From an uncultured bacterium (lineage in GTDB: Bacteria; Zhuqueibacterota; QNDG01; DSAB01): a stretch of DNA of 49,117 nt. The notes below the pieces were generated by a model. That model was not told where the DNA came from. It did no database searches and saw only the letters and a list, made by a program, of their open reading frames with translations. Position 1 is the stretch's first letter; each line of letters starts with the position of its first letter. The stretch spans positions 1 to 49,117 of the forward strand of contig CAZTKR010000002.1 in NCBI GenBank assembly GCA_964614115.1. Reading direction: 5' to 3'. Positions 1,378-36,688 of the stretch are shown in pieces. The position numbers and the translations under genes were made by a program.

Positions 1378-1386
1378 GAGGTGACT

Positions 1387-1839: not shown

Positions 1840-1980
1840 GCTGCCTGGGAGAATGTGCCTGAATCCTCGTAATCAGCAGGTTGATAGTCCCGAGGACGTA
1901 GTGTACCGATGGATACGTTGCTCTTTGGATGGATCGGCCCCATGAAAATGCATCCTGAGCAGGGAGATGCCATCAAATCC

Positions 1981-2009
1981 TTGACTTCGGATAGCGGATT
2001 AAGTATATT
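1981..2009 (+). promoter_or_regulatory. sigma70-like promoter candidate for the nifS-nadA-mnmA operon
   Basis: TTGACT (1981-1986), exactly 17 nt, TATATT (2004-2009), 70 nt upstream of ATG 2079. Followed by a GATGTCC-N12-GGACATC hairpin (2032-2057) in the leader. Confidence 0.5.
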
Positions 2010-2078
2010 AAGGATCAAGAATTTGCATGTGGATGTCCAGTGGACGAGTCGGACATCGCATGAGGACTGGGGAAACAG

Positions 2079-3230
2079 ATGAAACGCATTTATTTGGATT
2101 ATTCCGCGACCACGCCCACGGACCAAAGGGTCCTGAAGGCGATGGAACCGTACTGGAACGAAAAATTCGGAAATCCCTCCTCCATCCACAGTTACGGCCA
2201 GGAAACAAAAGAAGCCGTCGAGACTGCAAGAGCCCGTGTCGCTTCTCTGATAGGCGCAGCCCCCTCGGAAATTGTATTCACCAGTGGAGGAACCGAGGCC
2301 GATAATACGGCTATTAAATCCATCGGTTTTTCCCTCAGGGAGAAGGGAAATCATATCATCACCACAGCCATCGAGCACCACGCCGTGCTGCACGCCTGTC
2401 AGTTTATGGAGTCGCAAGGCTTTGAAGTGACCTTCTTGCCCGTGGATACGTCGGGACTCGTCAACATCTCCGATGTTCAAAAAGTCATAAAAGAAGGGAC
2501 GATTCTTATCTCCATCATGCATGCCAACAACGAGATTGGCACGATTCAACCCATCGCCGAAATCGGGGCACTGGCCAAGGAAAGAGCCATCCTCTTCCAC
2601 ACGGATGCCGTGCAAACATGCGGACACATGAAAATCGATGTGAATCAGGCGAATATCGACCTTTTGTCTCTCTCCGCCCATAAATTCTACGGGCCCAAGG
2701 GCGTGGGGGCCCTGTACATACGGGAGGGAACCCCCTTCATCCCTTTCATGGACGGTGGTGCCCAGGAACTGGGCCGGCGAAGCTCCACGCACAATGTTCC
2801 TGGGATCGTCGGGCTGGGGAAGGCCGCCGAAATCGCCATGGAAGAGATGGTTCCCGAGCACCAGCGGATTCGATCTCTTCGTGACAGGTTGTGGGAGGGC
2901 ATTCAACGCAACATCGACAAGGTTCATCTGAACGGGCATGCGGACAAGCGTCTCGACAACAATGTTCATCTCTCCATAGAAAACGTGGAAGGCGAAGCCC
3001 TCCTGATAAACCTTGATATGGAAGGCATTGCCGGTTCCAGCGGTTCGGCGTGCAGCTCCGGGTCGACGGAACCCTCTCATGTTTTGATTGCTTTGGGCAT
3101 ATCCCCCGAGCTTGCCAGGGGCAGTTTGCGATTGACGTTGGGGCGGTTCACCACGGAAGACGAGGTCGATGGTACCGTGGATGCATTAACCCGTGTTGTT
3201 CAGCACCTGCGTTCATTATCACCCTTTTAA
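2079..3230 (+). CDS. nifS: cysteine desulfurase, NifS/IscS type (class V aminotransferase)
   Basis: MKRIYLDYSATTP, FTSGGTEADN, PLP-lysine context SLSAHKFYGPKGVGALY, and catalytic-Cys loop SSGSACSSGS. 383 aa. GGGGA SD 5 nt before the ATG. Confidence 0.93.
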   Translation: MKRIYLDYSATTPTDQRVLKAMEPYWNEKFGNPSSIHSYGQETKEAVETARARVASLIGAAPSEIVFTSGGTEADNTAIKSIGFSLREKGNHIITTAIEHHAVLHACQFMESQGFEVTFLPVDTSGLVNISDVQKVIKEGTILISIMHANNEIGTIQPIAEIGALAKERAILFHTDAVQTCGHMKIDVNQANIDLLSLSAHKFYGPKGVGALYIREGTPFIPFMDGGAQELGRRSSTHNVPGIVGLGKAAEIAMEEMVPEHQRIRSLRDRLWEGIQRNIDKVHLNGHADKRLDNNVHLSIENVEGEALLINLDMEGIAGSSGSACSSGSTEPSHVLIALGISPELARGSLRLTLGRFTTEDEVDGTVDALTRVVQHLRSLSPF

Positions 3231-3240
3231 GGTAAAGCCG

Positions 3241-14535: not shown

Positions 14536-14540
14536 TCGGT

Positions 14541-15233: not shown

Positions 15234-17640
15234 GACGAGTCCACATAAACGCAAGAACAGCGATTCCATAACAGCCGAAACCTGTCCAGAATGACGTCGA
15301 GATACCGGCACTCAGGGCGATGGCCACGGCAAATACAGAGGCACACACCGACGTGGCCCCGTTGATTCCCCAGAGCCAGGGTGTAACGTATTCCGATCGG
15401 GAAGAGGCGATCTTCATGCCCAGGGGGAAGGCCATGCCCATGAAGAGCCCCAGGGGGAAGAGGATGATGACGGCGATGAGAATGCGCAAGGGGGTGACCG
15501 ATCCCTGAAACGTCCGGATCATCTGGGGTGTGAGCAGACCGAATAAAACCAGAATGCCCAGGAGAAGCGATAGACGGATGAGCGGAGACGCCGTTTCCGT
15601 GGGGCCGATTTTCTGCGTCGAGTAGCTGCCCAGACCACTGGACAGGAGCATGGCGAAGAGGACGACCGACAATCCATACGTGGGATGGCCCAGGAAGACG
15701 ATGAGCCTTTGCATCTGAGAGACCTCCACCAGCATGAATCCCAGTCCGATGGAAGCAAAGAAAAGAAACAGGGGCAGAGAGCCTTTCAGGTCTTTTTGTT
15801 TCGTCTTCAGCGCCAGGGGGATGATGATGCAGAGCAGGGTCAGGCCGATGACGACAAAAAGCAGTATCCCCAGGATGTAAACGGCCTTCATGTTGATGCT
15901 CATCGTGCCCTGTTCCAGGAGCTCCCGGTTGAAAATGTCCTTCAGGCGGAGCATGTGAAAGAAGAACGGGTTGTCGTCGGTGGGGGCTGCGATGTTGATG
16001 GGGAAGGCCTTTACGAATGCGTCGAGGTTCTCGCCCGAGGCGATGGCCGCGAACTCATCGTCCAGTGCAAAACGGGGGCTGAGGACCATGTCGAATTTCA
16101 TACGCTGAGCCACATCATCGATGATCGTCACATCCTCATGGGTGAACGGGCTCTTACTCACCAGAACGGTGGCCACACCCACGGGCGCCTCCACGCCGTC
16201 GGATGTGATCATGCATTTCACCAGGATGATATGCTTGCGGGATTGGGTGATACCCAGAGATTTCAGGGAGGACACCGCCAGGGAGATCAGCCGGTATGCC
16301 TCGCCGGGACGGTCCCGGAAATACCACCGTGAAAAAGTCAACACACCCTGGGGCGTGATGTGCTCCAGGAATATTTTCCATGCTTCCCGGGTATACAGAG
16401 CATTCTCGGTGAACACGAAAGCGCCCGACGCCGTGGCGGCCCAGGTATCGATGAGAGAGACCTGGATAACATCATACTGCCTCTCCTGCCTGGCGATGTA
16501 GCTGCGGGCTTCGTCGTTCACAAAACGCACGTTGGGAATACGGTCGAGATGACCGGTAAAATCACCGAAACGGCGATTGACTGCGTCGATGATGTCTTCG
16601 TTGATTTCCACGCCAGTTGCCGACTTCTGGTCGAACACCAGGGCCGAGAGAACATCCCTGCCGCCGCCTGCTCCGATGGCCAGGATGTCGGACTGGGGCC
16701 GGATGTAGTGAACCAGGTTCGTGACATCGTACTTAAGATACTCCAGATCGTTGAGATCCCCGTCGAAGGCCGTGAGGGGTGTATAGGCGATGGCATCGAT
16801 GTTCAGACCCAGTTGCCGGACCTGCTTATCGGCTGGATACGTCGGACTGATGCCCCAGCCAAAGGGCGGTTCGGGCCGGTTGGGATCCCCCCAAACGCCG
16901 ATACGCGAGAAGGAATTCCATTTTTCATAGATCGGACGCGTTTCCATCTGGCCTTTCACCCAGATCAGTCGTAGCAGGGATTTTTGATGAGCCACGAAGA
17001 CCGTATGCACCGCAGAAAATACGAACAGGGAGACACTGACCAGGATGGCCCACCGTTTTAGTTTTGGGGCGTGTCCGCCCGTGGAGAAAAAGAGAGCTCC
17101 TGCACCGGCCATAGCGGCCACGATGACAACGGCCGTGGGACCGTCGGTGATTCTCAGCACATAAATGAAAAGGATGCATCCCAGGGCGGCGCCCGCCAAA
17201 TCTGCCGCATAAAGCCGGCTGACCTGTCCGGGGAATCGGGTAAGTGCCAGACACACGCATATGCCGCTGAACACGAATGGTAGTGCGATGACCACATAAT
17301 TCAAAGCGATGGAATACACGCCGACGACTGATTTATGCGTGATAAAGGGGATCGATAGATGGGTGAGGAAGCTGATGACGATGGAGACGGCGAATCCCAG
17401 AGCGCTCAGGCCGAGTTGGTAACGGGTACGCTGGGGAGAGAACACGCCGGGCAAGAGGTAGACGATGATCGCTCCCGCCGTCATCCCGAACATGGCCACG
17501 GATATGGCAAGGAACGCGAAGTGGTACCACATGGTGACGCTGAAGATACGGGTAAGGAGTATCTCATACATCAGTGTCGCCAGCGTAATAAAAAAGAGGC
17601 CCGCGTAGGTTGCCCGTGTCGCCTTGAGTTCCGTGCGCAT
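15223..17640 (-). CDS. fused MFS-like membrane domain / spermidine-synthase-like protein, paralog B
   Basis: Collinear with paralog A over the whole length (YAGLFFITLATLMYEILLTRIFSVTMWYHFAFLAISVAMFGMT; ILAIGAGGGRDVLSAL; VSLIDTWAATASGAFVFTEN; identical stretch MQRLIVFLGHPTYGLSVVLFAMLLSSGLGS). ATG 17640 preceded by GGGAG with 8-nt spacing. The track start 17649 is a GTG. Confidence 0.85.
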   Translation of the reverse strand: MRTELKATRATYAGLFFITLATLMYEILLTRIFSVTMWYHFAFLAISVAMFGMTAGAIIVYLLPGVFSPQRTRYQLGLSALGFAVSIVISFLTHLSIPFITHKSVVGVYSIALNYVVIALPFVFSGICVCLALTRFPGQVSRLYAADLAGAALGCILFIYVLRITDGPTAVVIVAAMAGAGALFFSTGGHAPKLKRWAILVSVSLFVFSAVHTVFVAHQKSLLRLIWVKGQMETRPIYEKWNSFSRIGVWGDPNRPEPPFGWGISPTYPADKQVRQLGLNIDAIAYTPLTAFDGDLNDLEYLKYDVTNLVHYIRPQSDILAIGAGGGRDVLSALVFDQKSATGVEINEDIIDAVNRRFGDFTGHLDRIPNVRFVNDEARSYIARQERQYDVIQVSLIDTWAATASGAFVFTENALYTREAWKIFLEHITPQGVLTFSRWYFRDRPGEAYRLISLAVSSLKSLGITQSRKHIILVKCMITSDGVEAPVGVATVLVSKSPFTHEDVTIIDDVAQRMKFDMVLSPRFALDDEFAAIASGENLDAFVKAFPINIAAPTDDNPFFFHMLRLKDIFNRELLEQGTMSINMKAVYILGILLFVVIGLTLLCIIIPLALKTKQKDLKGSLPLFLFFASIGLGFMLVEVSQMQRLIVFLGHPTYGLSVVLFAMLLSSGLGSYSTQKIGPTETASPLIRLSLLLGILVLFGLLTPQMIRTFQGSVTPLRILIAVIILFPLGLFMGMAFPLGMKIASSRSEYVTPWLWGINGATSVCASVFAVAIALSAGISTSFWTGFGCYGIAVLAFMWTRHGT

Positions 17641-17847
17641 ACGTCTCACTCCCTGTCCTTATCCCCGTGGCTGTATTCGATTACTGCGACCATTTGGATA
17701 GAGAAATGTACGATTTTTTGCCATATGGATCAAGATTTATTTGGCCGTCCTGTGATTTAAAGGATCCATTTCAGGTTAAAAATCGTTATATTTAGATATT
17801 GTAGTAAAGAGGGTCATCGGAAAGAGTACGGAAGGAAGGTGCTTTCC

Positions 17848-26768: not shown

Positions 26769-26797
26769 TTGACAAATGGGATTCCTTTTTGTATCTT
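26769..26797 (+). promoter_or_regulatory. sigma70-like promoter of the Fe-S island
   Basis: Perfect TTGACA (26769-26774), 17-nt spacer, TATCTT (26792-26797), about 30 nt upstream of ATG 26826. Confidence 0.55.
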
Positions 26798-26801
26798 ATT
26801 A

Positions 26802-26815
26802 TGAGCATATGCTCA
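26802..26815 (+). promoter_or_regulatory. perfect 14-bp palindrome, candidate operator at the transcription start
   Basis: TGAGCATATGCTCA (7+7, perfect), beginning 5 nt after the -10 candidate. Confidence 0.5.
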
Positions 26816-26825
26816 AAACATAGGT

Positions 26826-27725
26826 ATGAGAATGGATGAGAATAGAAATCAACGTATGATAATCGCCATGGCCAGCGGAAAGGGCGGGACCGGGAAAACA
26901 ACCCTGGCCACGAACCTGGCCCGGGTACTGGAAGATCGAGGCGTGATCTTCATCGACTGCGATGTGGAGGAGCCCAACGGACACCTTTTCCTAAAACCGG
27001 CAATGGATAAAGAAAGACCGTATCATACATTCATCCCGGTGGTCGATCCTGTAAAATGCACGGCATGCGGCAAGTGCTCGGAACTCTGCCAGTTTAACGC
27101 CATCGCCACCATCAAAGACAAGGTGCTGGTCTTCCCCGAGCTATGCCACGCCTGCGAGGGCTGTAAACTCATTTGTCCCGAGGATGCGATTTCCGACGGC
27201 CAGAAAGAAGTGGGTGTCATCGCCGAAGGATCGGCTGGGAAAATCCGGTTTGCCCACGGGCGGCTTCGTATCGGGGAGGTCATGTCCCCGCCGCTGATAC
27301 GCGAGGTGAAGCGCGTGGGTCTTTCCGCCAACGATTCCCGTATCGTCCTTATCGACGCGCCGCCTGGTACGTCCTGTCCCGTTATCTCTGCCGTGGAAGG
27401 ATGCGATTTTGTGGTTCTGGTCACAGAGCCGACGCCGTTTGGACTCCACGATCTGAAACTGGCCGTAGAGATGGTCCGTGTACTCGGGATTCCTTTTGGC
27501 GTGGTGATTAATCGGTCGACAGTGGGCGACCGGAACGTGTGGCAATACTGCGATGATGAGGGTATCCCCATTCTCATGGAGATACCCGACGATCGGGACA
27601 TTGCCGTGGCTTATTCTCAGGGGACATTGCTCGTCGACGCACTGCCAGAGTACCGAACGCATTTTGAAGGTCTCTACCAGCGTATTCTATCGCATATCCC
27701 CATGGAAGAGAAGGTGGCACGATGA
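26826..27725 (+). CDS. MinD/ParA-type P-loop ATPase with inserted 2x[4Fe-4S] ferredoxin domain (COG1149-like), copy 1
   Basis: Deviant Walker A MASGKGGTGKTTLATNLA. CTACGKCSELC and CHACEGCKLIC (CxxCxxCxxxC x2). IDAPPGTSCPV. The start may instead be ATG 26856 (MIIAMASGKGG). Confidence 0.88.
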   Translation: MRMDENRNQRMIIAMASGKGGTGKTTLATNLARVLEDRGVIFIDCDVEEPNGHLFLKPAMDKERPYHTFIPVVDPVKCTACGKCSELCQFNAIATIKDKVLVFPELCHACEGCKLICPEDAISDGQKEVGVIAEGSAGKIRFAHGRLRIGEVMSPPLIREVKRVGLSANDSRIVLIDAPPGTSCPVISAVEGCDFVVLVTEPTPFGLHDLKLAVEMVRVLGIPFGVVINRSTVGDRNVWQYCDDEGIPILMEIPDDRDIAVAYSQGTLLVDALPEYRTHFEGLYQRILSHIPMEEKVAR

Positions 27726-28585
27726 AGGAAGTGGTCGTCATCAGCGGAAAAGGGGGGACGGGAAAGACGACGATAACGGCGTCCCTGGCGGCTCTGTGGA
27801 AAGACAAGGTGATTGCCGACTGCGACGTGGATGCAGCGGATATGCATCTGCTTCTCGACCCGACAATCCAGCAGAAATCCGATTTTTACAGCGGTGTGGA
27901 GGCTGTTATTGACGGCGATCGATGCACCCAGTGCGGCAAGTGCCTGGATGTGTGCCGATTTCATGCTATCACACCTGACTTTGTGGTCGATTCACTGGCC
28001 TGTGAGGGGTGCGGTGTGTGTCCTTATTTCTGTCCGATGGATGCCATATCCCTGGTGGAACGGCATTCGGGCGAGTGGTACGTTTCGGAAACCCGATTCG
28101 GCCCGATGGTCCACGCCCGGCTGGGCATCGCAGAGGAGAACTCGGGAAAACTGGTGAGCCTGATACGGAAAAAAGCCAAAGAGCTGGCCGAACAGCGAGG
28201 GCTGGATTTGATACTCGCCGATGGCTCGCCGGGTATCGGATGTCCCGTCATCAGCTCCATCACGGGTGCGTCGCTTGTCGTCATCGTGACCGAACCGACC
28301 GTCTCCGGCGTGCACGACATGGATCGGGTGTTGGGTTTGGCCAAACACTTCCAGATCCCGGCCGTGATGGTTATCAATAAATACGACCTGAACGAAGAAA
28401 TGACGCAAATCACGGAGGCTCGCGCTAAGGAATACGTTGCTCCGGTTTTAGGACGGATTCCTTACGATCCCGTGGTTACCCGGGCCATGGTGCAGGGCAA
28501 GACGGTGGTGGAATTCCAGGATGGGGCGGTTGCACAGGCTATCGAAGAGATCGGTCAAAAACTTTGGCAAAAAGTGAAAGCGTAG
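27722..28585 (+). CDS. MinD/ParA-type P-loop ATPase with inserted 2x[4Fe-4S] ferredoxin domain (COG1149-like), copy 2
   Basis: VISGKGGTGKTTITASLA. CTQCGKCLDVC and CEGCGVCPYFC. ADGSPGIGCPV. ATGA overlap with copy 1. Confidence 0.88.
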   Translation: MKEVVVISGKGGTGKTTITASLAALWKDKVIADCDVDAADMHLLLDPTIQQKSDFYSGVEAVIDGDRCTQCGKCLDVCRFHAITPDFVVDSLACEGCGVCPYFCPMDAISLVERHSGEWYVSETRFGPMVHARLGIAEENSGKLVSLIRKKAKELAEQRGLDLILADGSPGIGCPVISSITGASLVVIVTEPTVSGVHDMDRVLGLAKHFQIPAVMVINKYDLNEEMTQITEARAKEYVAPVLGRIPYDPVVTRAMVQGKTVVEFQDGAVAQAIEEIGQKLWQKVKA

Positions 28586-28594
28586 AGGGTCTAT

Positions 28595-28951
28595 ATGCCA
28601 CGTCCTAAAAAAAGCCGGTGGATCAGTTGTCATCCCGGTGTATCTTTCTTTAAACCCCAGGGCATCCCTCTGAGGATGCTGAATCAGGTGTATCTGGAGG
28701 TGGACGAGTTGGAGGCCATGCGTCTGGCCGACCTGGAGTCTCTCAGTCATGAAGACGCTGCTCAGAGGATGAATGTGTCCAGGGCCACCTTCGGAAGGAT
28801 CGTGGCTCTGGGACGGAAAAAGGTGGCCGATGCACTGGTTAACGGTAAAGCGATCCGGATCGAAGGAGGCGAGGTGGAGCTGCGGCCTCCTCTACCGCCC
28901 TTCGGCGGGCCCCACGGTCCGCGCGGTCGCAGGAGAGGGGGGTGGCAATAG
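28595..28951 (+). CDS. DUF134 (UPF0251) predicted DNA-binding protein
   Basis: MPRPKKSRWISCHPGVSFFKPQGIP...LEVDELEAMRLADLESLSHEDAAQRMNVSRATFGRIVALGRKKVADALVNGKAIRIEGG is the canonical DUF134 pattern with a sigma-70 region-4-like HTH. Gly/Pro/Arg-rich tail. Confidence 0.85.
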   Translation: MPRPKKSRWISCHPGVSFFKPQGIPLRMLNQVYLEVDELEAMRLADLESLSHEDAAQRMNVSRATFGRIVALGRKKVADALVNGKAIRIEGGEVELRPPLPPFGGPHGPRGRRRGGWQ

Positions 28952-29048
28952 GTCCATACACGATCTGCGACTGTATTAATCAGATAGGAACCCTGTCGGA
29001 GATGGAATGACCCAAACAACGATTTTACTGCAAAGGAATCAACAGTAG

Positions 29049-29537
29049 ATGCCGGACAATTTTGAGAAAGTATTCGAGAATATTCAGAAATATATCGTTG
29101 GGGATGCTTCTGAGCCCTATTCAGATAAAGTGTTGACTCTGGCCTACGAACCAGTGAATGTGGGCGAAATCGAGAATCCCGACGGTATTGCCAGAGTGAT
29201 GGGGGAATGCGGGGATTGGATGCAAATTTATTTAAAGATAACGAGTGATACGATATCGGAAGCGCGATTTTTAACCGACGGATGTGGAGCTACCATGGCC
29301 TGTGGCAGTGCTGTAACCGAATTGGTCAGGGGAAGGTCGCAGTGGGAAGCGATAAAGATCTATCCGCAGACGGTCATCCGATACCTGGATGGACTTCCCG
29401 CATCGCATATGCATTGTGCTGTTTTGGCCGTACAGGCGCTGAAGGAGGCATTAAAGTCGTTGAAGTCGTCGCCTGAGAAAGAGGGAACGCAACCGCATCT
29501 AAGGAATACCGAAAACGATCGACGGGATTCTGAGTAA
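29049..29537 (+). CDS. IscU/NifU N-terminal-domain-like Fe-S scaffold protein
   Basis: The three conserved scaffold Cys contexts are present: MGECGDWMQIYL, TDGCGATMACGSA and SHMHCAVLAVQALKEA. Confidence 0.82.
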   Translation: MPDNFEKVFENIQKYIVGDASEPYSDKVLTLAYEPVNVGEIENPDGIARVMGECGDWMQIYLKITSDTISEARFLTDGCGATMACGSAVTELVRGRSQWEAIKIYPQTVIRYLDGLPASHMHCAVLAVQALKEALKSLKSSPEKEGTQPHLRNTENDRRDSE

Positions 29538-29610
29538 GGGAATCGTTGAATACGGAATTTGAAATAAAATAAAGAGTGATCCATTTAACCAAATAAAGGA
29601 GGATCCTATC

Positions 29611-29973
29611 ATGCCAAGAGGAGACAGAACGGGGCCCATGGGTATGGGTCCTATGACAGGACGCGCAGCCGGTTATTGTGCCGGCTATGCCACGCCGGGA
29701 TATATGAGTCCCTACGGCGGCCGGTTTGGCCGAGGCATGGGCTGGGGACGCGGTGGTCGGTGGGGACGATGGGGTGGCTACGCCATGGGCTACCCCATGG
29801 GTTATCCTAACGTCATGCCGGCTTACGGTGCTGTTCCGTATGGAACGGCCTACGCACCGGAAAATGAGTTGGAGTTCCTTCAGAATCAGGCCAAGGTCTT
29901 GGGCGATCAACTGACCGATGTTCAGAAACGTATCGCAGACCTGGAGAAAGAGGTTAAGAAGGAACGCAAGTAG
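29611..29973 (+). CDS. DUF5320 family protein (Gly/Met/Tyr/Arg-rich N-half, coiled-coil C-half)
   Basis: MPRGDRTGPMGMGPMTGRAAGYCAGY is the N-terminal signature. Low-complexity GRFGRGMGWGRGGRWGRWGGYAMGYPMGYP. C-terminal ELEFLQNQAKVLGDQLTDVQKRIADLEKEVKKERK. Strong AAGGAGG SD. Confidence 0.8.
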   Translation: MPRGDRTGPMGMGPMTGRAAGYCAGYATPGYMSPYGGRFGRGMGWGRGGRWGRWGGYAMGYPMGYPNVMPAYGAVPYGTAYAPENELEFLQNQAKVLGDQLTDVQKRIADLEKEVKKERK

Positions 29974-30168
29974 ACTGAACCCAGGAGGCTGTTAAAAAAA
30001 CCGATGTGAATGCCTTGCGGGATAAAGAATCACCGATGGCAGGACTCATCAAAAATTCCAGATCAAGTCCTGCATATAATGCAAGACGTTCAGGGCTTCT
30101 TTGACAGCCTTCTGGAAGTAATCAGGATTCAGAGAACAGCGTGCATCAATCAATTAAGGAAAATACAG

Positions 30169-30423
30169 ATGCCAACGTACGAGTATGAATGCACCGATTG
30201 CGGCCATCGCTTTACGAAGTTCCAGAACATCACGGAATCGCCGGTTCAAGTATGTCCCGAATGTTCGGGATCGGTTCGACGCCTGATCTCAGGCGGCGCC
30301 GGTGTGGTGTTCAAGGGATCGGGATTTCATGCTACGGATTATCGTCGCGGTTCGGGAGATTCGGGGCCCTGCTGTGGGGAATCCGGTGGTTGTGACAATC
30401 CGAAGCGATGTTGCGGTCAGTGA
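30169..30423 (+). CDS. FmdB family zinc-ribbon protein with a Cys-rich tail
   Basis: MPTYEYECTDCGHRF...VCPECSG (CxxC...CxxC). Tail GPCCGESGGCDNPKRCCGQ. AAGGA SD 8 nt upstream of ATG 30169. The N-terminal extension in the track ORF (30010) is not typical for this family. Confidence 0.8.
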   Translation: MPTYEYECTDCGHRFTKFQNITESPVQVCPECSGSVRRLISGGAGVVFKGSGFHATDYRRGSGDSGPCCGESGGCDNPKRCCGQ

Positions 30424-30492
30424 ACATCGTTTTAAACTATCGGGATGAACCATCTTTGAATCGGTGTGTTCTGTCAAGAAGGAGGTTTTATC

Positions 30493-30678
30493 ATGCAACG
30501 AGGAATGGGTGGAGGACAAGGAAAGGGAAGGGGCCGTGGAGGGGGTAACCGTCCCGATTCCGGCCCCGGAGGCGAATGCCTCTGTCCCCAGTGTGGGAAA
30601 ACGGTACCGCATCAGGCGGGTAAGCCGTGCTATGAAACGATCTGTCCGCAATGCGGATCGCAAATGATGAGGAAATAA
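30493..30678 (+). CDS. small (61 aa) Gly/Arg-rich double CPxCG zinc-ribbon protein
   Basis: MQRGMGGGQGKGRGRGGGNRPDSGPGGECLCPQCGKTVPHQAGKPCYETICPQCGSQMMRK. AAGGAGG SD 8 nt upstream of ATG 30493. Confidence 0.65.
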   Translation: MQRGMGGGQGKGRGRGGGNRPDSGPGGECLCPQCGKTVPHQAGKPCYETICPQCGSQMMRK

Positions 30679-30693
30679 CAGAGGAGTGGGTGT

Positions 30694-31455
30694 ATGAAAA
30701 TTGCCATCACATCACAAGGGAAGGATCTGAATGCGAATCTCGATCCCCGTTTCGGTCGCTGCCAGTATTTCCTGATATACGATACCGAGTCCGAAGAACT
30801 GGAAGTCCTGGAGAATCCCAACATCAGTGCGGGGGGCGGAGCCGGCATTCAGGCTGCTCAAACCGTGGCGGAGAAAGGAGTGGAGGCCGTCCTGACGGGG
30901 AATGTCGGCCCCAATGCTTTTCGGACCCTTTCTGCCGCAGGGATCACCGTGTATGCGGGCGTACCGGGTCGCGTGCTGGACGCCATCGATGGATTGAAGC
31001 AAGGTGTGTTGAAGCCTTACAACGCGCCGTCCGTAGAATCCCATCATGGTATTCAGACGGTTTCGGACACATCCGCAGGGTCATCCGGTAAAAAACGTAT
31101 CGCCGTGGCTTCCGAGGGTGACCAAGGTCTGGATTCCAACGTCAGTGCTCATTTCGGGAGATGTCCGTATTACACCATCGTCGACGTGGAAGGGGACAAG
31201 ATCAGCTTGAGTTTTAAGGTTGAGAATCCCTTTTACGGTGCGCACGGTCATCCGGGACAGGTTCCGGGATTTATCCGGGATCAAGGCGCTCGTGTGATTA
31301 TTGCCGGTGGCATGGGACCTCGAGCCGTGGGATTTTTCAACGAGTTCGGAATCGAAGTCGTCACGGCCCCTATCGGAAAAGTGAAGGACTGCGTGGAGGG
31401 ATATCTCCAGGGTACCATTAAAGGATCGGAACCCTGCAAGCATGAGTCGTGTTAA
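30694..31455 (+). CDS. tandem NifX/NifB-C-terminal (Nitro_FeMo-Co, COG1433-like) domain protein
   Basis: Domain 1: MKIAITSQGKDLNANLDPRFGRCQYFLIYD...AEKGVEAVLTGNVGPNAF. Domain 2: KRIAVASEGDQGLDSNVSAHFGRCPYYTIVD...DQGARVIIAGGMGPRAV. Cys-containing tail GSEPCKHESC. Confidence 0.85.
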   Translation: MKIAITSQGKDLNANLDPRFGRCQYFLIYDTESEELEVLENPNISAGGGAGIQAAQTVAEKGVEAVLTGNVGPNAFRTLSAAGITVYAGVPGRVLDAIDGLKQGVLKPYNAPSVESHHGIQTVSDTSAGSSGKKRIAVASEGDQGLDSNVSAHFGRCPYYTIVDVEGDKISLSFKVENPFYGAHGHPGQVPGFIRDQGARVIIAGGMGPRAVGFFNEFGIEVVTAPIGKVKDCVEGYLQGTIKGSEPCKHESC

Positions 31456-31490
31456 TAACGTTTCCGTGGTATTGTGGAAAGGATCGCTGT

Positions 31491-32315
31491 ATGAATCAAC
31501 CTAAAGATAGAACGCAGCAGATGGAGGAACAGAACAGGCGCATTCAGCAGACTCTCGATCGCATCAAGAACCGCATCGTCGTGTTCAGTGGTAAAGGCGG
31601 CGTTGGGAAAACCACCGTGGCCGTCAACCTTGCTTACGCCCTCGTTGCAAGAGAAAAGAAGGTCGGTCTTCTTGATGCGGACATCACGGGGCCTAACGTT
31701 CCCAAGATGATCGGCCTGGAAGGCTCTCCGGGCGTGGATGGTGACAGTCGTGCCATAGCACCTCAGGTGAAGCATGGACTCAACGTCATCTCGATTGCGC
31801 CCCTGATTCCGGCCGATGCGCCGGTTATCTGGCGAGGGCCTCTACGGTCCGGTGCCATCACGCAATTTCTCTCCGATGTGATCTGGGGAGACCTGGATTT
31901 TCTCCTGGCCGACCTGCCACCGGGCACCGGAGACGAGGTGCTGACCACGGCTCAGAGAATGCTACCCCAGATGGCCATCGTGGTGACGACACCGCAAGAA
32001 ATTTCACTGACCGACTGCCGGAGGGCGGTGAACATGGCAAAGAAGCTGAACATTGCGAAGGTCGGTGTAGTCGAAAACATGTCTGGACTTGTTTGTCCCC
32101 ATTGCGGTCGTGAAATCGAAATTTTTGGAACCGGGGGCGGCGAGAAAATGGCCGATGAAATGAGTGCGATTTTCTTGGGGCGGATCCCCATGGAAATGGA
32201 GACCCGAGAGGGAGGGGATACCGGATCGCCCATCGTGCTGGTCAATGAGGAGAGCAAAACGGCTCAGGCATTTACCACGATTGCAGAGAATGTCATCACG
32301 CTTCTGTCGTCTTGA
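31491..32315 (+). CDS. Mrp/NBP35 (ApbC) family Fe-S cluster carrier ATPase
   Basis: VFSGKGGVGKTTVAVNLAYAL, DADITGPN, DLPPGTGDE and ENMSGLVCPHCGREIEIFG (CxxC). ATG 31491 after GGAAAGGA. Confidence 0.9.
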   Translation: MNQPKDRTQQMEEQNRRIQQTLDRIKNRIVVFSGKGGVGKTTVAVNLAYALVAREKKVGLLDADITGPNVPKMIGLEGSPGVDGDSRAIAPQVKHGLNVISIAPLIPADAPVIWRGPLRSGAITQFLSDVIWGDLDFLLADLPPGTGDEVLTTAQRMLPQMAIVVTTPQEISLTDCRRAVNMAKKLNIAKVGVVENMSGLVCPHCGREIEIFGTGGGEKMADEMSAIFLGRIPMEMETREGGDTGSPIVLVNEESKTAQAFTTIAENVITLLSS

Positions 32316-32333
32316 TTATCGGGAGATTACGGA

Positions 32334-32951
32334 ATGAGCGATCATTGGATTCAACCGAAAAAGAAGAAAGCGCTGGTCTGTGATTCATGTAAAAGCAAGA
32401 AATGTCGGAAGGAACATGACTGTTTCGGCATCGCCGATCAGATACTATCCGAATATACCGGTGAAGCCCTGACACTCGCCCAGGCGGCGAGTCGCATTGA
32501 GGGGAAGTACTACATGCAGAAGACACGTCTGGAGGAAGTCATGCTTTTTGCCCACGAGATGGGATATAAGAAGCTGGGCGTGGCGTTCTGTATTGGTCTT
32601 GCCCAGGAGGCACAGATTCTCTGCCGGTTTCTACGGAAGGAATTCGATGTGGTATCGGTGTGCTGTAAAGTGTGCGGAATCGAAAAGGATGTTCTCGATC
32701 TGGAGAAGATTGTTCCCAAAAAGACGGAAACGATGTGCAATCCCATCGGACAGGCAGCGCTTTTAAACCACGCGAAGACGGACTTGAATTTAATCTGCGG
32801 GCTGTGCATCGGTCATGACATTCAGTTCACACAGAATTCCAAGGCACCGGTGACGACGTTTATCGTGAAGGACCGCGTTCTGGGACACAACCCGGCCGCG
32901 TCTCTTTATTGCCGGTACCTTCGGAAGCGTATCGATAAAGACGAGGCGTGA
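32334..32951 (+). CDS. DUF1847 family Cys-rich (metal-binding) protein
   Basis: CDSCKSKKCRKEHDC, VVSVCCKVCG, MCNP and LICGLCIGHD match my recollection of DUF1847. Confidence 0.72.
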   Translation: MSDHWIQPKKKKALVCDSCKSKKCRKEHDCFGIADQILSEYTGEALTLAQAASRIEGKYYMQKTRLEEVMLFAHEMGYKKLGVAFCIGLAQEAQILCRFLRKEFDVVSVCCKVCGIEKDVLDLEKIVPKKTETMCNPIGQAALLNHAKTDLNLICGLCIGHDIQFTQNSKAPVTTFIVKDRVLGHNPAASLYCRYLRKRIDKDEA

Positions 32952-32994
32952 GCCTGTTAACGGCACCCTTCGTCCTTGTGAGAGGAGATGGCTT

Positions 32995-33942
32995 TTGAAG
33001 AAAACATTTGGCCCTGTGCCGTCACGGCGGTTGGGTAGGAGCCTGGGAATCAACACGATCCCTCCCAAGGTGTGCAGTTATTCCTGCGTGTACTGCCAGG
33101 TAGGCCGTACGAAGCGGCTGCGCATGGAGCGAGGGCCGTTCTACTCCCCGGCAGCCCTGTTCAGGGATGTCCAGCGTCGAGTGGAGGAGGCACGGACGGC
33201 AGGGGAATCCATCGATTACCTGACCATCGTTCCCGATGGCGAGCCGACTCTGGACAGCGCCCTGGGCCGCGAACTCGACTATTTTCGGCGGTTGGATATC
33301 AAGATAGCGGTGATTACCAACGGATCGTTAATCTGGCAGGACGAGGTTAGGCGGCAACTGGCAAAGGCCGACTGGGTTTCCCTGAAAGTAGATGCCGTGG
33401 AAACGGCCATCTGGAAGAAGATTAATCGGCCTCATGGTGTACTTCGTCTGGAAGAAATCAAAAAAGGGATGCACCAATTTGCCGAGACATTTTCCGGCGA
33501 ACTGGTGACAGAGACGATGCTCGTGGCCGGCGTGAACGACGACGAGACCCATCTTTCGAAACTGGCTGAATTTTTGGGTCGGTTGTGTCCCTCGAAAGCG
33601 TATCTGTCCGTTCCCACACGGCCGCCGGCCGAGACGTGGGTCCATCCCCCAGACGAAGATACCATCACACGTGCGTATCAGATCGTGAGCGAGCATGTGG
33701 AATGTGTTGAATACCTCATCGGGTACGAGGGCAATGCCTTTGCCTCCACGGGGGATGTGGAAGACGATTTGTTGAGTATCACGGCCGTACACCCGATGCG
33801 GGAAGAGGCTGTGAACGATTTGTTGGGACGTACCCAGACCGATTGGTCAACCGTTGAAAGACTGGTCGCAGAGAAAAAACTCGTTTCCACACAGTACAGG
33901 GGACGAACATTTTATACGAGAAAGATCGGAGCAAAAACATGA
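32995..33942 (+). CDS. radical SAM protein (COG0731-like)
   Basis: N-terminal FGPVPSRRLGRSLGIN followed by CSYSCVYCQ (CxxxCxxC). TTG start at 32995, 7 nt after GAGGAG. Confidence 0.82.
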   Translation: MKKTFGPVPSRRLGRSLGINTIPPKVCSYSCVYCQVGRTKRLRMERGPFYSPAALFRDVQRRVEEARTAGESIDYLTIVPDGEPTLDSALGRELDYFRRLDIKIAVITNGSLIWQDEVRRQLAKADWVSLKVDAVETAIWKKINRPHGVLRLEEIKKGMHQFAETFSGELVTETMLVAGVNDDETHLSKLAEFLGRLCPSKAYLSVPTRPPAETWVHPPDEDTITRAYQIVSEHVECVEYLIGYEGNAFASTGDVEDDLLSITAVHPMREEAVNDLLGRTQTDWSTVERLVAEKKLVSTQYRGRTFYTRKIGAKT

Positions 33943-34652
33943 AGATCAAACCCAAATTGAATCTGATCATCGATGTATTCATGTTCCTGCTGATGATGGC
34001 TATCGGTGGCATCGGATTCCTGATTAAGTTTATCCTTATTCCCGGGAGTGCGCGTTGGATACGTTACGGGGAGAACGTGGAGCTTTACTTTTGGGGAATG
34101 GACAGGCACTAATGGGGAGCGGTTCATTTGGTACTGGGACTGGTTTTATTGGGCCTGTTGCTCTTACATATTGTTTTGCATTGGAAACTTATCAAAATAT
34201 ATTTCGGTCTGCTCTTTACGGGTAAAAAGACGAGAGTCGGTCTATTCATCTTGTTTGCGTTGGCGAGCCTGGTGCTGCTGTTCTTTGCCTTTTTTGTACC
34301 TTACGATGTGGTTCCCCAAGGCCAGGGAGAGGGGCATCACCGGATGGAAAGGGCAGCTACCGAACCTTCGGTAGAATCGACGGAGACACCGAAGCCCGTC
34401 TCCCAACCGGTCCAGCGGGAAGAAGAAGCGCATAACCATCACCACACAGACGACATCGACATAAACGGGCGCATGACACTGTATCAGGTTGCAAGGACGT
34501 ATCACGTGCCGGTGGACTCTCTGAAAGCGGCTCTGGGCATTCCTTTGGCCGTGTCCGGCCAGGAAAAACTAGGGCAGCTTCGCCGGCGCATGCATTTTCA
34601 TATGAGCGATATCGAATTGTACATTACCAAGTATCATCAACGACGAGATTAA
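33939..34652 (+). pseudogene. DUF4405-like membrane protein with a C-terminal soluble domain, interrupted by an in-frame TAA (34110-34112)
   Basis: The frame starting at ATG 33939 (ATGA overlap with the radical SAM stop) reads MKIKPKLNLIIDVFMFLLMMAIGGIGFLIKFILIPGSARWIRYGENVELYFWGMDRH-TAA-WGAVHLVLGLVLLGLLLLHIVLHWKLIKIYF.... The two halves together form the two-helix DUF4405 pattern. The track only reports the downstream part, from TTG 34128. Confidence 0.55.
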
Positions 34653-34667
34653 TAACAGGAGGTAAAA

Positions 34668-34967
34668 ATGGCGCACGAGGGCTATCATGAATCCGACGCT
34701 CATTTAAGCGAAGAAACCAAGGATTATCATAGAGCGCTTGTTTCTCTCAACGAAGAGTTGGAAGCCGTGGATTGGTATCAACAACGAATCGACGTCACCA
34801 AGGACGAATCACTTAAAAAGATATTGGAGCACAACCGGGATGAAGAGAAAGAACATGCCGCCATGCTCATCGAATACCTCCGGCGCAGGGACCCTGCTTT
34901 TGCCAAAGAGTTGAAGGACTACCTTTTTTCTGATCCCGACGTGGAGATTGTGGATCTGGAAGACTGA
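34668..34967 (+). CDS. encapsulated-ferritin (EncFtn) family ferritin-like protein, no recognisable targeting peptide
   Basis: HRALVSLNEELEAVDWYQQRID and LEHNRDEEKEHAAMLIEYLRRRDP match the EncFtn ferroxidase-site helices. 99 aa. Ends in the acidic SDPDVEIVDLED. AGGAGG SD. Confidence 0.82.
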   Translation: MAHEGYHESDAHLSEETKDYHRALVSLNEELEAVDWYQQRIDVTKDESLKKILEHNRDEEKEHAAMLIEYLRRRDPAFAKELKDYLFSDPDVEIVDLED

Positions 34968-34979
34968 AAGGAGAACATC

Positions 34980-35423
34980 ATGAAGAAGATCGGTATTATC
35001 ATATGCGGACGATACAAGGACTGCGGCGGGGGGAAATGCCTACGATCCATGCGGGAGCACGTGGGAGGGTTCGCCGTTTATCCCAAAGACGAGGAACTGC
35101 AGCTGGTGGGGTATTCGTACTGCGGGGACTGTCCCGGTGGGAACGTGGAATACGTGCCCGAGGAGATGATTAAAAACGGAGCCGAAGTGATCCATCTGGC
35201 CACGGGTCTTGTGGTGGGATACCCGCCCTGCCCGCGAATTCGGCATTTCAAGGAATTCATCGAAAAATGCTACAACATCCCGGTCGTCATCGGAACGCAT
35301 CCCATACCGCTGAAATATCTCGATAATCATAAAAAGTTATCATTCTGGAAGAATATGAGGATGGATGAATTGGCCGGTGATTTGATGAAGGAAGATCAAA
35401 AGATCATGGAGGCGTACAATTGA
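34980..35423 (+). CDS. CGGC domain protein
   Basis: MKKIGIIICGRYKDCGGGKC, SYCGDCPGG and GYPPCP. AAAGGAG SD. Confidence 0.8.
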   Translation: MKKIGIIICGRYKDCGGGKCLRSMREHVGGFAVYPKDEELQLVGYSYCGDCPGGNVEYVPEEMIKNGAEVIHLATGLVVGYPPCPRIRHFKEFIEKCYNIPVVIGTHPIPLKYLDNHKKLSFWKNMRMDELAGDLMKEDQKIMEAYN

Positions 35424-36592
35424 AGGATGCCGATTGGAGAGTATCCGGCCGAGTAGGGCGGTTGAAGAAGTCAGCTATCCATGAGATGACGCGTCTTTCG
35501 AAACAGATCGAGGACGTGGCCTTTCTGTCCTGGGCAAAACCCACATCCGGCACACCGGAGCATATCAAGGAAGCGGCCGTAAAAGCGATTCGGGACGGGT
35601 TGGTCGGCGGGTATTCCGAGACGTCGGGTCTCCCGGCCCTCAGGGAAGCCATCGCCAAGAAACTGATTCGCGATAATCGTATTCAGGCCAGCGCCTCGGA
35701 GATTCTGGTTACCGTCGGAGCCATCGAAGGGCTTTCGGCTGCCATCATGGCGGTTATCGATCCCGGTGATGAAGTCATACTCCCTACGCCCACGTACTCG
35801 ACGCATATCAGGCAGGTCGTCATGGCCTCGGGTCGTCCGATCCTTATCCCCACGGTCGAGGACGACGGCTTCACCTGGGATCTGGATGCCGTCAAGAAGG
35901 CCATTACATCCAGGACACGGGCGATCCTGTACTGTTCGCCCAGCAATCCCACGGGCACGGTCTTTTCCGAACCCCACCTCAAAGCGCTTGCCGAGATCGC
36001 CCTGGAGCATAACCTGGTCATCATCACCGACGAAGCCTACGAATACTTCGTGTTCGACGGTCATCGGCATTTTAGCATCGGGTCTATCCCGGACGTGAGG
36101 ACACAGGTCATCAGCTGCTTCACGTTTACCAAGACGTATGCCATGACGGGCTGGCGCATCGGTTATATACACGCCGATGAGACGATGATTCCGCAGATCG
36201 CCAAGGCGCACATTCCGTTTGCCATCTGTGCGCCCGTGGTCTCGCAGTACGCTGCCCTGGCCGCTCTGGAGGGTTCTCAGGATTGCGTGGATGAATTCCA
36301 TGCGCACTACTTGAAAACCCGCAACCTGATGTGCCAACGCCTCGATGCGCTGTCCTCGGTATTCGATTATCACAAGCCCGAAGGATCGTACCTGATGTTC
36401 CCGAGGATCAAGCTTAAGGAAGGTCAAGATTCCGTGTCCTTCTGCAAAAAGCTGCTCCAGGAGGCCAAGGTTTCCACGACACCGGGTTCGGCTTTCGGGC
36501 CCACGGGAGAGAGCCACCTGCGCCTCTCTTTTTGCGTTCCAGAGGCGATGATCGATAAGGCTTTCGACCGGATGGAAGCATACTTTTCATAG
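35420..36592 (+). CDS. class I/II pyridoxal-phosphate-dependent aminotransferase (aspartate aminotransferase-like)
   Basis: GYSETSGLPALREAIA, NPTGTVF, ITDEAYEYF and PLP-lysine context FTFTKTYAMTGWRIGY. TTG start at 35420 overlaps the CGGC gene stop. Confidence 0.88.
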   Translation: MKDADWRVSGRVGRLKKSAIHEMTRLSKQIEDVAFLSWAKPTSGTPEHIKEAAVKAIRDGLVGGYSETSGLPALREAIAKKLIRDNRIQASASEILVTVGAIEGLSAAIMAVIDPGDEVILPTPTYSTHIRQVVMASGRPILIPTVEDDGFTWDLDAVKKAITSRTRAILYCSPSNPTGTVFSEPHLKALAEIALEHNLVIITDEAYEYFVFDGHRHFSIGSIPDVRTQVISCFTFTKTYAMTGWRIGYIHADETMIPQIAKAHIPFAICAPVVSQYAALAALEGSQDCVDEFHAHYLKTRNLMCQRLDALSSVFDYHKPEGSYLMFPRIKLKEGQDSVSFCKKLLQEAKVSTTPGSAFGPTGESHLRLSFCVPEAMIDKAFDRMEAYFS

Positions 36593-36649
36593 TCGCCTAT
36601 TGATTTGGCCAGAAAATACTCAGGATCACGAATGTATCTCAATTCAAGG

Positions 36650-36688
36650 GCCTGAACCATGGGATGTGCGGATGGTTCAGGCTTTTTT
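36650..36688 (+). terminator. strong rho-independent terminator closing the island
   Basis: GCCTGAACCAT (36650-36660) / 11-nt loop / ATGGTTCAGGC (36672-36682) + TTTTTT (36683-36688). Confidence 0.85.

Follow-up and report, generated by a model that had tools for sequence, protein, structure and literature searches.

The locus described here raises the question of what a run of fifteen co-directional genes, rich in predicted iron-sulfur (Fe-S) and other metal-binding proteins, assembles or handles, and for which client. It lies on contig CAZTKR010000002.1 (NCBI GenBank assembly GCA_964614115.1) of an uncultured bacterium of the Zhuqueibacterota, and we refer to the whole 49,117-nucleotide stretch that was analysed as the window. 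The genes, numbered g1 to g15 in order, occupy positions 26826-36592 of the forward strand between a sigma-70-like promoter and a strong terminator. A preliminary description of this island saw in it a metal-sulfur or Fe-S handling gene cluster, which the confirmed domains bear out, and a candidate for an uncharacterised maturation system. Our analysis indicates, with a probability of roughly 0.6, that the island is an extended single-operon variant of the ORP (orange protein) system, an ATP-driven machine for the handling of Fe-S or metal-sulfur clusters.

Since 2011 the ORP complex has been recognised as a set of anaerobe-specific metalloproteins required for normal growth. In Desulfovibrio vulgaris, the paralogues Orp3 and Orp4 each have two [4Fe-4S] ferredoxin motifs, Orp8 is the orange protein, which has a Di-Nase fold and binds a Mo-Cu sulfide cluster non-covalently, and Orp9 is the protein MrpORP (PMC6345978). 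Orp3, Orp4 and Orp8 co-purify, and the [4Fe-4S] cluster of MrpORP is transferred to them in vitro (PMC6345978). The D. vulgaris orp genes form two divergent sigma-54 operons, which are activated by IHF and by OrpR, a redox-sensing Fe-S enhancer-binding protein (EBP) (PMC8359166, PMC3897727).

Sequence comparison and domain content identify g1/g2, g8 and g9 as homologues of Orp3/Orp4, Orp8 and MrpORP, respectively. The two ATPases encoded by g1 and g2 are 33% identical, and their alignment shows an invariant deviant Walker A motif (SGKGGTGKT) together with eight invariant ferredoxin cysteines (2 x CxxCxxCxxxC). Their correspondence with the paired MinD-type ATPases of Desulfovibrio is one of description (PMC6345978) rather than of alignment to DVU2103/DVU2104, and g2 is the probable heterodimer partner of g1. 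A PDB search with g8 retrieved the orange protein of D. gigas (2WFB, E = 4.8e-16), and both halves of g8 match the C-terminal Di-Nase domain of the MrpORP model. The g9 protein scores 316 bits against the MrpORP equivalog NF041136 across model positions 1-250, which is the whole P-loop domain, and falls below the cutoff of 450 bits because its Di-Nase domain sits on a separate polypeptide. Fusion of Mrp and Di-Nase domains has been gained and lost many times (PMC6345978). With a GKGGVGKT deviant Walker A motif and a CPHC motif, g9 qualifies as a carrier of the Mrp/NBP35/ApbC group, which includes bacterial ApbC and the eukaryotic Nbp35-Cfd1 pair of the cytosolic Fe-S protein assembly (CIA) pathway. 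Its scores are 312 bits with the NUBPL/ParA family of Pfam and 263 bits with the ApbC model, but it differs from these carriers in being encoded in a dedicated operon with its likely targets and in lying below the ApbC equivalog cutoff (263 versus 348 bits).

The island also shares with the Desulfovibrio system its clustered genes and its restriction to anaerobes, but departs from it in several respects. There are two divergent operons in Desulfovibrio and a single co-directional operon here. In the island the Mrp and Di-Nase domains belong to different polypeptides, and the Di-Nase domain is duplicated in tandem. A NifU-type scaffold, DUF5320, two zinc-ribbon proteins, DUF1847, a radical S-adenosylmethionine (SAM) enzyme and a CGGC protein are additional, and no equivalent of Orp5 ([2Fe-2S]) was identified in the island. 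The scaffold, g4, has its cysteine ligands in CGD, GCG and HC contexts and lies above the Pfam cutoff for NifU_N. It is below the cutoffs of the NCBIfam equivalogs (115 versus 188 bits for NifU_clost, and 72 versus 192 bits for IscU), and thus belongs to a divergent subfamily. The preliminary description had called the core of the island experimentally uncharacterised, which cannot be maintained: the homologous ORP complex has been isolated, and published work covers the characterisation of its Fe-S clusters, cluster transfer in vitro and the dissection of its regulation (PMC6345978, PMC8359166, PMC3897727). An assigned pathway for the key homologues, which would have spoken against a new system, is accordingly found in part, since the core belongs to a studied complex but that complex has no assigned role or client.

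If the island is an ORP cluster, its genes should travel together. Loci were collected from one genome per GTDB species with an Orp3-like anchor, which gave at least 600 pattern matches, and 538 of those listed encode relatives of the anchor. We used the best 80 of these at least 538 loci, with anchors 48-62% identical to g1, and searched their six-frame ORFs with the proteins of the window. The 80 loci come from the Desulfobacterota, Planctomycetota, Chloroflexota, Ignavibacteria, Bacillota, Omnitrophota, Zixibacteria and Acidobacteriota and from three archaeal groups. Many of the contigs end early, so that the family counts are lower bounds. An Orp4-like gene is present at 75 of the 80 loci, at a median distance of 0 nt, and a NifX-like gene at 74. 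These are followed by DUF5320 (47), Mrp (45), the g7 family (35, at a median of 451 nt from the anchor), NifU_N (26, all on the same strand), FmdB (26), DUF134 (20) and radical SAM enzymes related to g11 (20, with E values of 1e-31 to 1e-102, all on the same strand). For these nine families, from Orp4-like to radical SAM, 410 of 422 matches are on the strand of the anchor and most are within 3 kb of it in a search span of 20 kb, an internal control which shows that the linkage is not due to chance. DUF1847 was found at five loci and strong CGGC matches at three, with one further strong CGGC match among 47 DUF1847-anchored loci (L092) and weak matches in three more. The aminotransferase has a single strong match, on the opposite strand, and neither DUF4405 nor EncFtn occurs at any of the 80 loci. 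OrpR-like PAS/sigma-54 activators are present at 18 of these loci, which ties the set retrieved with g1 to the orp clusters of Desulfovibrio.

A second set of loci, metagenome contigs of at least 5 kb anchored on DUF1847, gives the same picture from another gene: 24 of 47 contain an Orp3-like gene, usually together with NifX-like, DUF5320 and g7-family genes. Closer to the island, all fifteen genes are in the same order in L006 and L007, where the radical SAM protein is 92% identical, and the order g1-g11 is kept in L089, where the DUF1847 protein is 66% identical. The genes g1-g9 therefore form a widely conserved system, with g10, g11 and g14 as accessories that recur but can be absent, and with g12, g13 and g15 as neighbours specific to the lineage. 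Of the fifteen genes, about two thirds are demonstrably part of an ORP-type system. Linkage beyond the source genome, on which the preliminary description had made its proposal depend, thus holds for most of the island, and its treatment of all fifteen genes as one unit holds for g1-g9 and occasionally for g10, g11 and g14. It fails for g12 and g15, which are unlinked outside close relatives, and g13 is linked within the lineage only, and there in another position.

Unbiased clustering of the other ORFs at the 80 loci revealed recurrent families that are missing from the window: a second Di-Nase group (26 loci), an ARMT1-like (DUF89) phosphatase (20), the OrpR-like EBP (18), a metallo-beta-lactamase (18), a SAM methyltransferase (14), a further Zn_ribbon_8 group (13), TrmO_N (9) and a 4HBT thioesterase (8). 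Examples of these extra families lie at L058 7226-8167, L047 9807-10649, L037 3326-4111 and L063 8880-9488. None of the families that recur in the 80 neighbourhoods is a candidate client enzyme. Gaps of 4-5 kb separate the two ATPase genes at several loci. In one DUF1847-anchored metagenome contig (L099 11662-16380) the block inserted between the Orp3-like and Orp4-like genes encodes a DnaJ-domain protein, DsrE, a flavoprotein resembling CoA-disulfide/persulfide reductases, methyltransferases, OsmC and a ferredoxin-Di-Nase fusion, and is followed by a true MrpORP fusion of 418 aa. The content of this block points to sulfur or persulfide chemistry.

Control of the island also appears to differ from that of the Desulfovibrio operons, with a sigma-70-like promoter, DUF134 and a palindromic operator predicted here in place of sigma-54, OrpR and IHF. 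Consensus scans are in general not above chance, and the promoter is credible because it is conserved in relatives: it is identical in L006, and the same architecture is present in L089, L008 and L043. Control of the Desulfovibrio type by sigma-54 was rejected, as no convincing site (TGGCAC-N5-TTGC with up to two mismatches) lies upstream of g1 at 26.5-26.8 kb; across the window the pattern has 33 matches, against 41 expected. Domain scans found no EBP gene in the island, although OrpR-like EBPs do occur at related loci, as described above.

The sequence TGAGCATATGCTCA just after the promoter is a perfect palindrome and is identical in L006, L089, L008 and L016. In its conserved form, TTATGAGCATATGCTCA(T/A)AA, it is found overlapping promoters of ORP-like clusters from many phyla, and it extends to the consensus TTATGAGCATATGCTCATAA. 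With up to two mismatches, the palindrome is present at 15 of 23 loci with DUF134 and at 7 of 137 without it (Fisher p = 1.3e-10). Nearly all copies are at the heads of clusters and overlap promoters, either immediately past the -10 box or in the spacer that separates it from the -35 box, directly upstream of a DUF134 or Orp3-like gene. In addition to the site in the window, copies are found at L089 4582, L008 124, L016 1860, L041 5183, L054 5318, L083 4311 and elsewhere; the window contains no second copy, even with three mismatches allowed. From this association across phyla, DUF134 is predicted to be an autoregulating repressor, and the sequences suggest that it serves in this type of ORP cluster as an alternative to OrpR. 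Both regulators are present at two of the 80 loci, and the OrpR-like EBP and DUF134 occur alone at 16 and 18, respectively. This is a trend only (p = 0.10) and does not establish mutual exclusivity. A literature search returned no function or operator for DUF134 (UPF0251/COG1342), a search with the operator string returned primers only, and a sequence search of the PDB gave no match.

At the C-terminus of DUF134 homologues from ORP loci there is often a CxxC...CPxC zinc ribbon and, behind it, a Gly/Arg tail, as at L016 1863-2360, L041 5200-5673, L054 5335-5841 and L035 7706-8197, and these are the same modules that make up the stand-alone protein g7. The DUF134 protein of the island, g3, has the Gly/Arg tail (residues 97-118) without the zinc ribbon. 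At three further loci (L003 15309-16421, L169 9059-10097 and L170 641-2181), where neither DUF134 nor OrpR was called, a PadR-family regulator is encoded next to DUF5320 or Mrp genes and may be a third regulatory solution in some lineages.

The coordinates of all features are collected in Table 1. The fifteen ORFs of the preliminary description are all present at or very near the positions it gave, its promoter, terminator and junction sizes hold, and each of its domain assignments was reproduced with Pfam and NCBIfam models. Overlaps of 4 nt join g1/g2, g11/g12 and g14/g15, and a gap of 195 nt precedes g6, the true start of which is at 30169. For g7 the start at 30493 was taken from within the ORF 30466-30678, and for g9 the start is probably at 31491, with 31449 also possible. 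Automatic gene calls in relatives (L006 6853-7056; L001 1675-2396) miss the FmdB gene g6, and they either miss g7 or place there a 67-aa ORF that apparently corresponds to the alternative-frame ORF 30464-30667 of the window. The zinc-ribbon frame of g7 is supported by its homologues at the 35 loci counted above. Apart from the promoter palindrome, the island contains one weak (78%) palindrome, within g8, and no direct repeats, and an Rfam scan of the whole window found no RNA families.

Table 1. Features of the island and of the cysteine desulfurase encoded in trans, with their positions in the window
Feature	Position	Strand	Basis and remarks
Sigma-70-type promoter, TTGACA-17 nt-TATCTT	26769..26797	+	10/12 consensus match
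Operator-like palindrome, predicted DUF134 binding site	26799..26818		core TGAGCATATGCTCA at 26802-26815; between -10 box and start codon
g1, Orp3-like MinD/ParA-type ATPase with 2x[4Fe-4S] ferredoxin insert	26826..27725	+	CbiA/ParA and two Fer4 motifs
g2, Orp4-like paralogous ATPase	27722..28585	+	CbiA/ParA and two Fer4 motifs
g3, DUF134 helix-turn-helix protein with Gly/Arg/Pro C-terminal tail	28595..28951	+	DUF134, 92 bits
g4, NifU_N/IscU-type scaffold with three Cys ligands	29049..29537	+	NifU_N, 98 bits
g5, DUF5320 protein	29611..29973	+	DUF5320, 98 bits
g6, FmdB-type zinc ribbon with Cys-rich tail CC..C..CC	30169..30423	+	FmdB/Zn_ribbon_8; TIGR02605, 70 bits
g7, 61-aa protein with Gly/Arg-rich N-terminus and double CPxCG zinc ribbon	30493..30678	+	no Pfam family
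g8, tandem NifX-like (Nitro_FeMo-Co, Di-Nase) carrier, orange protein homologue	30694..31455	+	two Nitro_FeMo-Co domains (PF02579 twice), 164 bits
g9, Mrp/NBP35 Fe-S carrier ATPase (CPHC), P-loop half of MrpORP	31491..32315	+	PF10609, 312 bits
g10, DUF1847 Cys/His-rich alpha/beta protein	32334..32951	+	DUF1847, 184 bits
g11, radical SAM enzyme of COG0731-like family, single CxxxCxxC cluster	32995..33942	+	Radical_SAM
g12, DUF4405-like membrane protein gene with in-frame TAA at 34110-34112	33939..34652	+	DUF4405-like
g13, EncFtn-like ferritin, 99 aa	34668..34967	+	EncFtn-like, 135 bits
g14, CGGC-domain Cys-rich protein	34980..35423	+	CGGC, 89 bits
g15, class I/II aminotransferase	35420..36592	+	Aminotran_1_2, 231 bits
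Intrinsic terminator, 15-bp stem and U6	36646..36688	+	-22 kcal/mol, z = -3.5
NifS-type cysteine desulfurase, in trans	2079..3230	+	TIGR03402 NifS equivalog, 564 bits versus cutoff 531

The cysteine desulfurase that the preliminary description assigned to the island in trans passes the NifS equivalog cutoff. Its neighbours within 1360-5209 encode an Rrf2/IscR-like regulator (1360-1839), NadA and MnmA, and no NifU gene adjoins it; g4, which is 26 kb away inside the ORP island, is the sole NifU-type scaffold found in the window. No nitrogenase, hydrogenase, carbon monoxide dehydrogenase or encapsulin was found among the window ORFs scanned with Pfam, in agreement with the earlier statement that the window contains no client enzyme. 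Two large adjacent ORFs on the minus strand, at 12118-14580 (820 aa) and 15223-17649 (808 aa), have no Pfam match at E <= 1e-5.

The accessory genes g10, g11 and g14 bear on whether the island might synthesise a cofactor. The DUF1847 protein g10 has the motif CxxCxxxxCxxxxxC, five further invariant cysteines and two invariant histidines, and its invariant residues are C16, C19, C24, C30, C86, C110, C111, C135, C158, H161 and H185. Its confidently predicted model is an alpha/beta fold (predicted local distance difference test, pLDDT, 88) with no significant neighbour in the PDB (best E = 0.01, template-modelling (TM) score 0.35), and a literature search gave no function for the family. The closest named relative, 69% identical, is from candidate division KSB1. 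The CGGC protein g14 has no PDB match by sequence, and the literature search gave nothing functional for it; distant homology between DUF1847 and CGGC was rejected (hhalign probability 0.4%). The radical SAM protein g11 likewise has no PDB match by sequence. Across 38 homologues only C27, C31 and C34 are invariant, and g11 has no Nitro_FeMo-Co domain. Foldseek searches with its AlphaFold (AF2) model (pLDDT 72) returned NifB, pyruvate formate-lyase (PFL) activase, viperin and TYW1, all with TM scores of about 0.5. As these matches are all generic, they do not support a functional assignment. From its sequence and model, we classify g11 as a single-cluster radical SAM enzyme and not as NifB, and a role as a NifB-type cofactor synthase was rejected, since g11 lacks both auxiliary K-cluster ligands and a fused NifX-like domain.

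Orthologues of g11, about 63% identical, belong to a very large family, of which we sampled six neighbourhoods. Two are in ORP clusters (L003, L169), three are beside a second radical SAM gene, a ParA/Mrp gene and genes for Feo iron transport (L005, L168, L170) and one is elsewhere (L171). A second radical SAM gene follows the orthologue in L005 (10001-16352, Anaerolineales), L168 (3147-9981) and L170 (8001-15224), a ParA/CbiA ATPase gene comes next in L005 and L170, and genes for an iron-dependent repressor or FeoA and for FeoB are nearby in all three. The Feo genes give this family a link to iron that is independent of the ORP genes.

These genes invite a reading, essentially that of the preliminary description, in which the island carries out Nif-like biosynthesis of a new complex metallocofactor for a client encoded elsewhere. 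We regard this as unlikely. The parts of the island do parallel NifU, NifB, NifX and NifH: as in nitrogenase maturation (NifU/NifS, NifB, NifX/NafY, NifH, NifEN), there is a scaffold, a radical SAM enzyme, NifX-fold carriers that bind anionic clusters non-covalently, and dimeric Fe-S P-loop ATPases. The same-strand linkage of g11 relatives to ORP loci, the nine invariant cysteines and two invariant histidines of DUF1847 together with its ORP linkage in about half of its loci, and the small-molecule enzymes among the recurrent families (ARMT1-like, metallo-beta-lactamase, SAM methyltransferase and TrmO_N) also fit a biosynthetic role, and NifB is nominally the top structural match of g11. At TM 0.51, however, that match does not stand out from the ones to PFL activase, viperin and TYW1, and g11 retains only its three SAM-cluster cysteines, so that a NifB-like step is unsupported. 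Nor are these enzymes part of the core, given that the radical SAM family is found at 20 and DUF1847 at 5 of the 80 loci. The island contains no NifEN, NifDK or NifH proper, its ATPases have ferredoxin inserts in place of the bridging cluster of the NifH type, and neither a NifEN-like scaffold nor a candidate client recurs in the neighbourhoods. The self-contained cluster-building pathway envisaged earlier would accordingly lose its NifB-like step, and as a whole it goes beyond what the genes themselves establish.

The small Gly/Arg- and Cys-rich proteins g5, g6 and g7 are much more frequent at ORP loci than some of these accessories. A cross-phylum alignment of DUF5320 shows a strongly conserved N-terminus (MPRGDGTGPxGMGPMTGRAAGYCAGY) followed by a Gly/Arg/Trp/Tyr/Pro-rich region and a coiled coil. 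The island protein g5 conforms to this pattern, with an MPRGD(R/G)TGP N-terminal motif, GYCAGY, a low-complexity region rich in Gly, Arg, Trp and Tyr, and a C-terminal coiled coil. Proteins of the g7 family usually start with MPRGDGTGP and continue with GRG repeats and a CxCPxCG...CPxCG ribbon; g7 itself is without the MPRGDGTGP start. The motif is thus common to DUF5320 (29611-29640 in the window) and to homologues of g7 (e.g. L041 8371-8640 and L035 9757-10014), which suggests a common docking partner. DUF5320 has no PDB match by sequence, and the literature search gave nothing functional for it.

The composition of these proteins recalls IssA of Pyrococcus furiosus, which combines a NifX-family domain with a cationic Gly/Arg/Trp-rich tail, binds thioferrate and can rebuild [4Fe-4S] ferredoxin (PMC5524996). 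The island might, on this analogy, store iron sulfide: the NifX-like protein and the cationic DUF5320 and g7 proteins would nucleate and enclose an anionic, thioferrate-like polymer of iron sulfide, the ATPases and Mrp would mobilise it, and the EncFtn-like ferritin would buffer iron. Residues 1-85 of g5 (pI 9.8, 27% Gly, 14 aromatic, 10 Pro and 8 Arg/Lys residues) are closely like the published IssA tail, with 15 Gly, 14 aromatic, 11 Pro and 7 cationic residues of 70 (PMC5524996), and Gly and Arg are likewise abundant at the N-terminal end of g7 and in the C-terminal DUF134 tail. Genes of the g5 and g7 families show tight linkage with NifX-like genes, and iron themes recur in the FeoAB genes beside g11 orthologues, in a CDF-NifX fusion, and in the DsrE and CoA-disulfide-reductase-like genes within an ORP cluster. 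The likeness is, however, compositional, drawn against the published description of IssA, and does not amount to a demonstration of homology. In IssA the cationic segment proposed to wrap anionic iron sulfide is fused to the NifX-family domain, whereas here, where the system is known from its genes, such segments are on DUF5320, on g7 and in the C-terminal tail of DUF134. The g8 chain extends only 10 residues beyond its second domain and so carries no tail of the IssA kind. Thioferrate itself is documented solely from a hyperthermophilic archaeon growing on sulfur, and Gly/Arg tails are common in nucleic-acid-binding and disordered proteins. We therefore consider a storage system of the IssA type improbable.

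A broader version of this idea, which we rate as similarly doubtful, would make ORP clusters in general a widespread store or chaperone of anionic iron sulfide in anaerobes, either thioferrate-like or in the form of a large cluster. The NifX-like protein would hold it together with DUF5320 and the Gly/Arg ribbon protein, the ATPase pair would mobilise it, and DUF134 would sense the load through its Gly/Arg tail, which in many relatives includes a zinc ribbon. If this were true, it would add a fourth arm of Fe-S supply in anaerobes, beside ISC, SUF and NIF. Both Nif-like synthesis and IssA-like storage overlap in mechanism with the ORP reading that we prefer.

A role in cell division or positioning, in which the MinD/ParA-like ATPases would position a structure and the Fe-S clusters would be redox sensors only, is very improbable. 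It could appeal to the literature, where the DVU2103-2109 regulon is annotated 'cell division' and polar localisation of MrpORP is reported, and to archaeal MinD as the best NCBIfam match of g1 and g2. These matches score 64-73 bits and are far below the cutoff of 202. No gene resembling MinC, MinE, FtsZ or ParB recurs in the 80 neighbourhoods, the recurrent partners are all metal, sulfur or cluster proteins, and scaffold and carrier proteins are hard to fit to a positioning role.

The downstream genes g12-g15 are a separate problem, since they may be neighbours that are read through from the ORP operon and have no common function with it. The DUF4405-like gene g12 retains its domain, as described earlier, but not an intact reading frame: the in-frame TAA splits it into ORFs of 57 and 174 aa. 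A 92%-identical relative (L006 10325-11038) has CAA (Gln) at this site and an intact gene of 237 aa. The same stop is found in two more, independent assemblies of this organism (L001, L002) and is therefore a real nonsense mutation, and g12 is a pseudogene here. The g13 protein belongs to the fold family of the encapsulated ferritins (EncFtn), and its best PDB matches are the NE0167 decamer (3K6C) and then Rhodospirillum rubrum EncFtn; against TIGR04535 it scores 124.5 bits, just short of the cutoff of 125. It differs from encapsulated ferritins in having only 99 aa, without a C-terminal localisation extension of the length in the matched proteins, and no encapsulin was found among the Pfam-scanned ORFs of the window. 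Assignment to an encapsulin-EncFtn system was therefore rejected, there being no adjacent shell gene.

We put the chances that g12-g15 are read-through neighbours at about even, and this is compatible with an ORP operon upstream of them. DUF4405 and EncFtn are missing from the 80 loci and the one strong aminotransferase match is on the opposite strand, g12 carries its nonsense codon, and in L089 the EncFtn gene is in a separate unit upstream of the promoter. On the other hand, the junctions are tight (gaps of 12-16 nt and overlaps of 4 nt) with no terminator before 36646, EncFtn stays beside the cluster in this 66%-identical relative despite the rearrangement, and CGGC has strong matches at a few distant ORP loci.

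Returning to the ORP reading, we propose the following mechanism for the island. Sulfur would be supplied by the NifS protein encoded elsewhere in the window, and clusters would be assembled on the NifU-type scaffold g4 and handed to the Mrp/NBP35 carrier g9, which would load [4Fe-4S] clusters onto the Orp3/Orp4-like heterodimer g1/g2. The heterodimer may then act like the dimeric switches of the MinD/NifH class, drawing on ATP and on electrons supplied by its ferredoxin inserts in order to process or pass on an anionic metal-sulfur species, which would be bound non-covalently by the tandem NifX-like carrier g8. The small proteins g5, g6 and g7 would be cofactor-binding or docking partners, and g10, g11 and g14 would be lineage-variable accessories. 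Transcription from the sigma-70-type promoter would be repressed by the operon's own DUF134 protein at the promoter-overlapping palindrome. Complex formation, the Fe-S clusters of Orp3/Orp4 and transfer from MrpORP are carried over by analogy from the Desulfovibrio homologues, in which alone they have been shown; the order of the steps, the parts played by the ATPases, the small proteins and DUF134, and the existence of a client are what we infer from the gene content, the homology to ORP proteins, the conserved linkage and the association of operator and DUF134 observed here.

Several points weigh against this interpretation. Its biochemistry comes from Desulfovibrio homologues only, this island and the clusters of the DUF134 type being known from sequence, and the role that the literature tentatively suggests for the Desulfovibrio complex itself is one in cell division. 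The orange protein as isolated held a Mo-Cu sulfide cluster and not an Fe-S cluster (PMC6345978). Control by sigma-54 and OrpR, which is part of the described ORP system, is absent here, and g9 does not reach the curated MrpORP cutoff. As a single operon the island is weakened by the pseudogene g12, by the lack of linkage of g12, g13 and g15 in other phyla, and by promoters that may lie within it, as in the gap of 195 nt before g6. The Gly/Arg-rich regions of the small proteins may be nucleic-acid-binding or merely disordered.

The core ORP complex was already known; what is new here is a different predicted regulation, domains that are split and duplicated, and extra conserved components. The parts list of the system is enlarged, in that the ATPase pair and the NifX-like protein travel with DUF5320, the Gly/Arg zinc ribbon and FmdB in at least eight bacterial phyla and three archaeal groups, with a dedicated NifU-type scaffold as a recurrent component and the radical SAM family and DUF1847 as less frequent ones. 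DUF134 and its 20-bp palindrome provide a testable regulatory handle, and the small cationic proteins a concrete biochemical hypothesis, that the system may handle anionic metal-sulfur species in an IssA-like manner. If confirmed, these results would give DUF134 its first function and would tie DUF5320, DUF1847 and CGGC to the ORP system, and they would provide a clearer view of how Fe-S clusters are supplied or stored in strict anaerobes.

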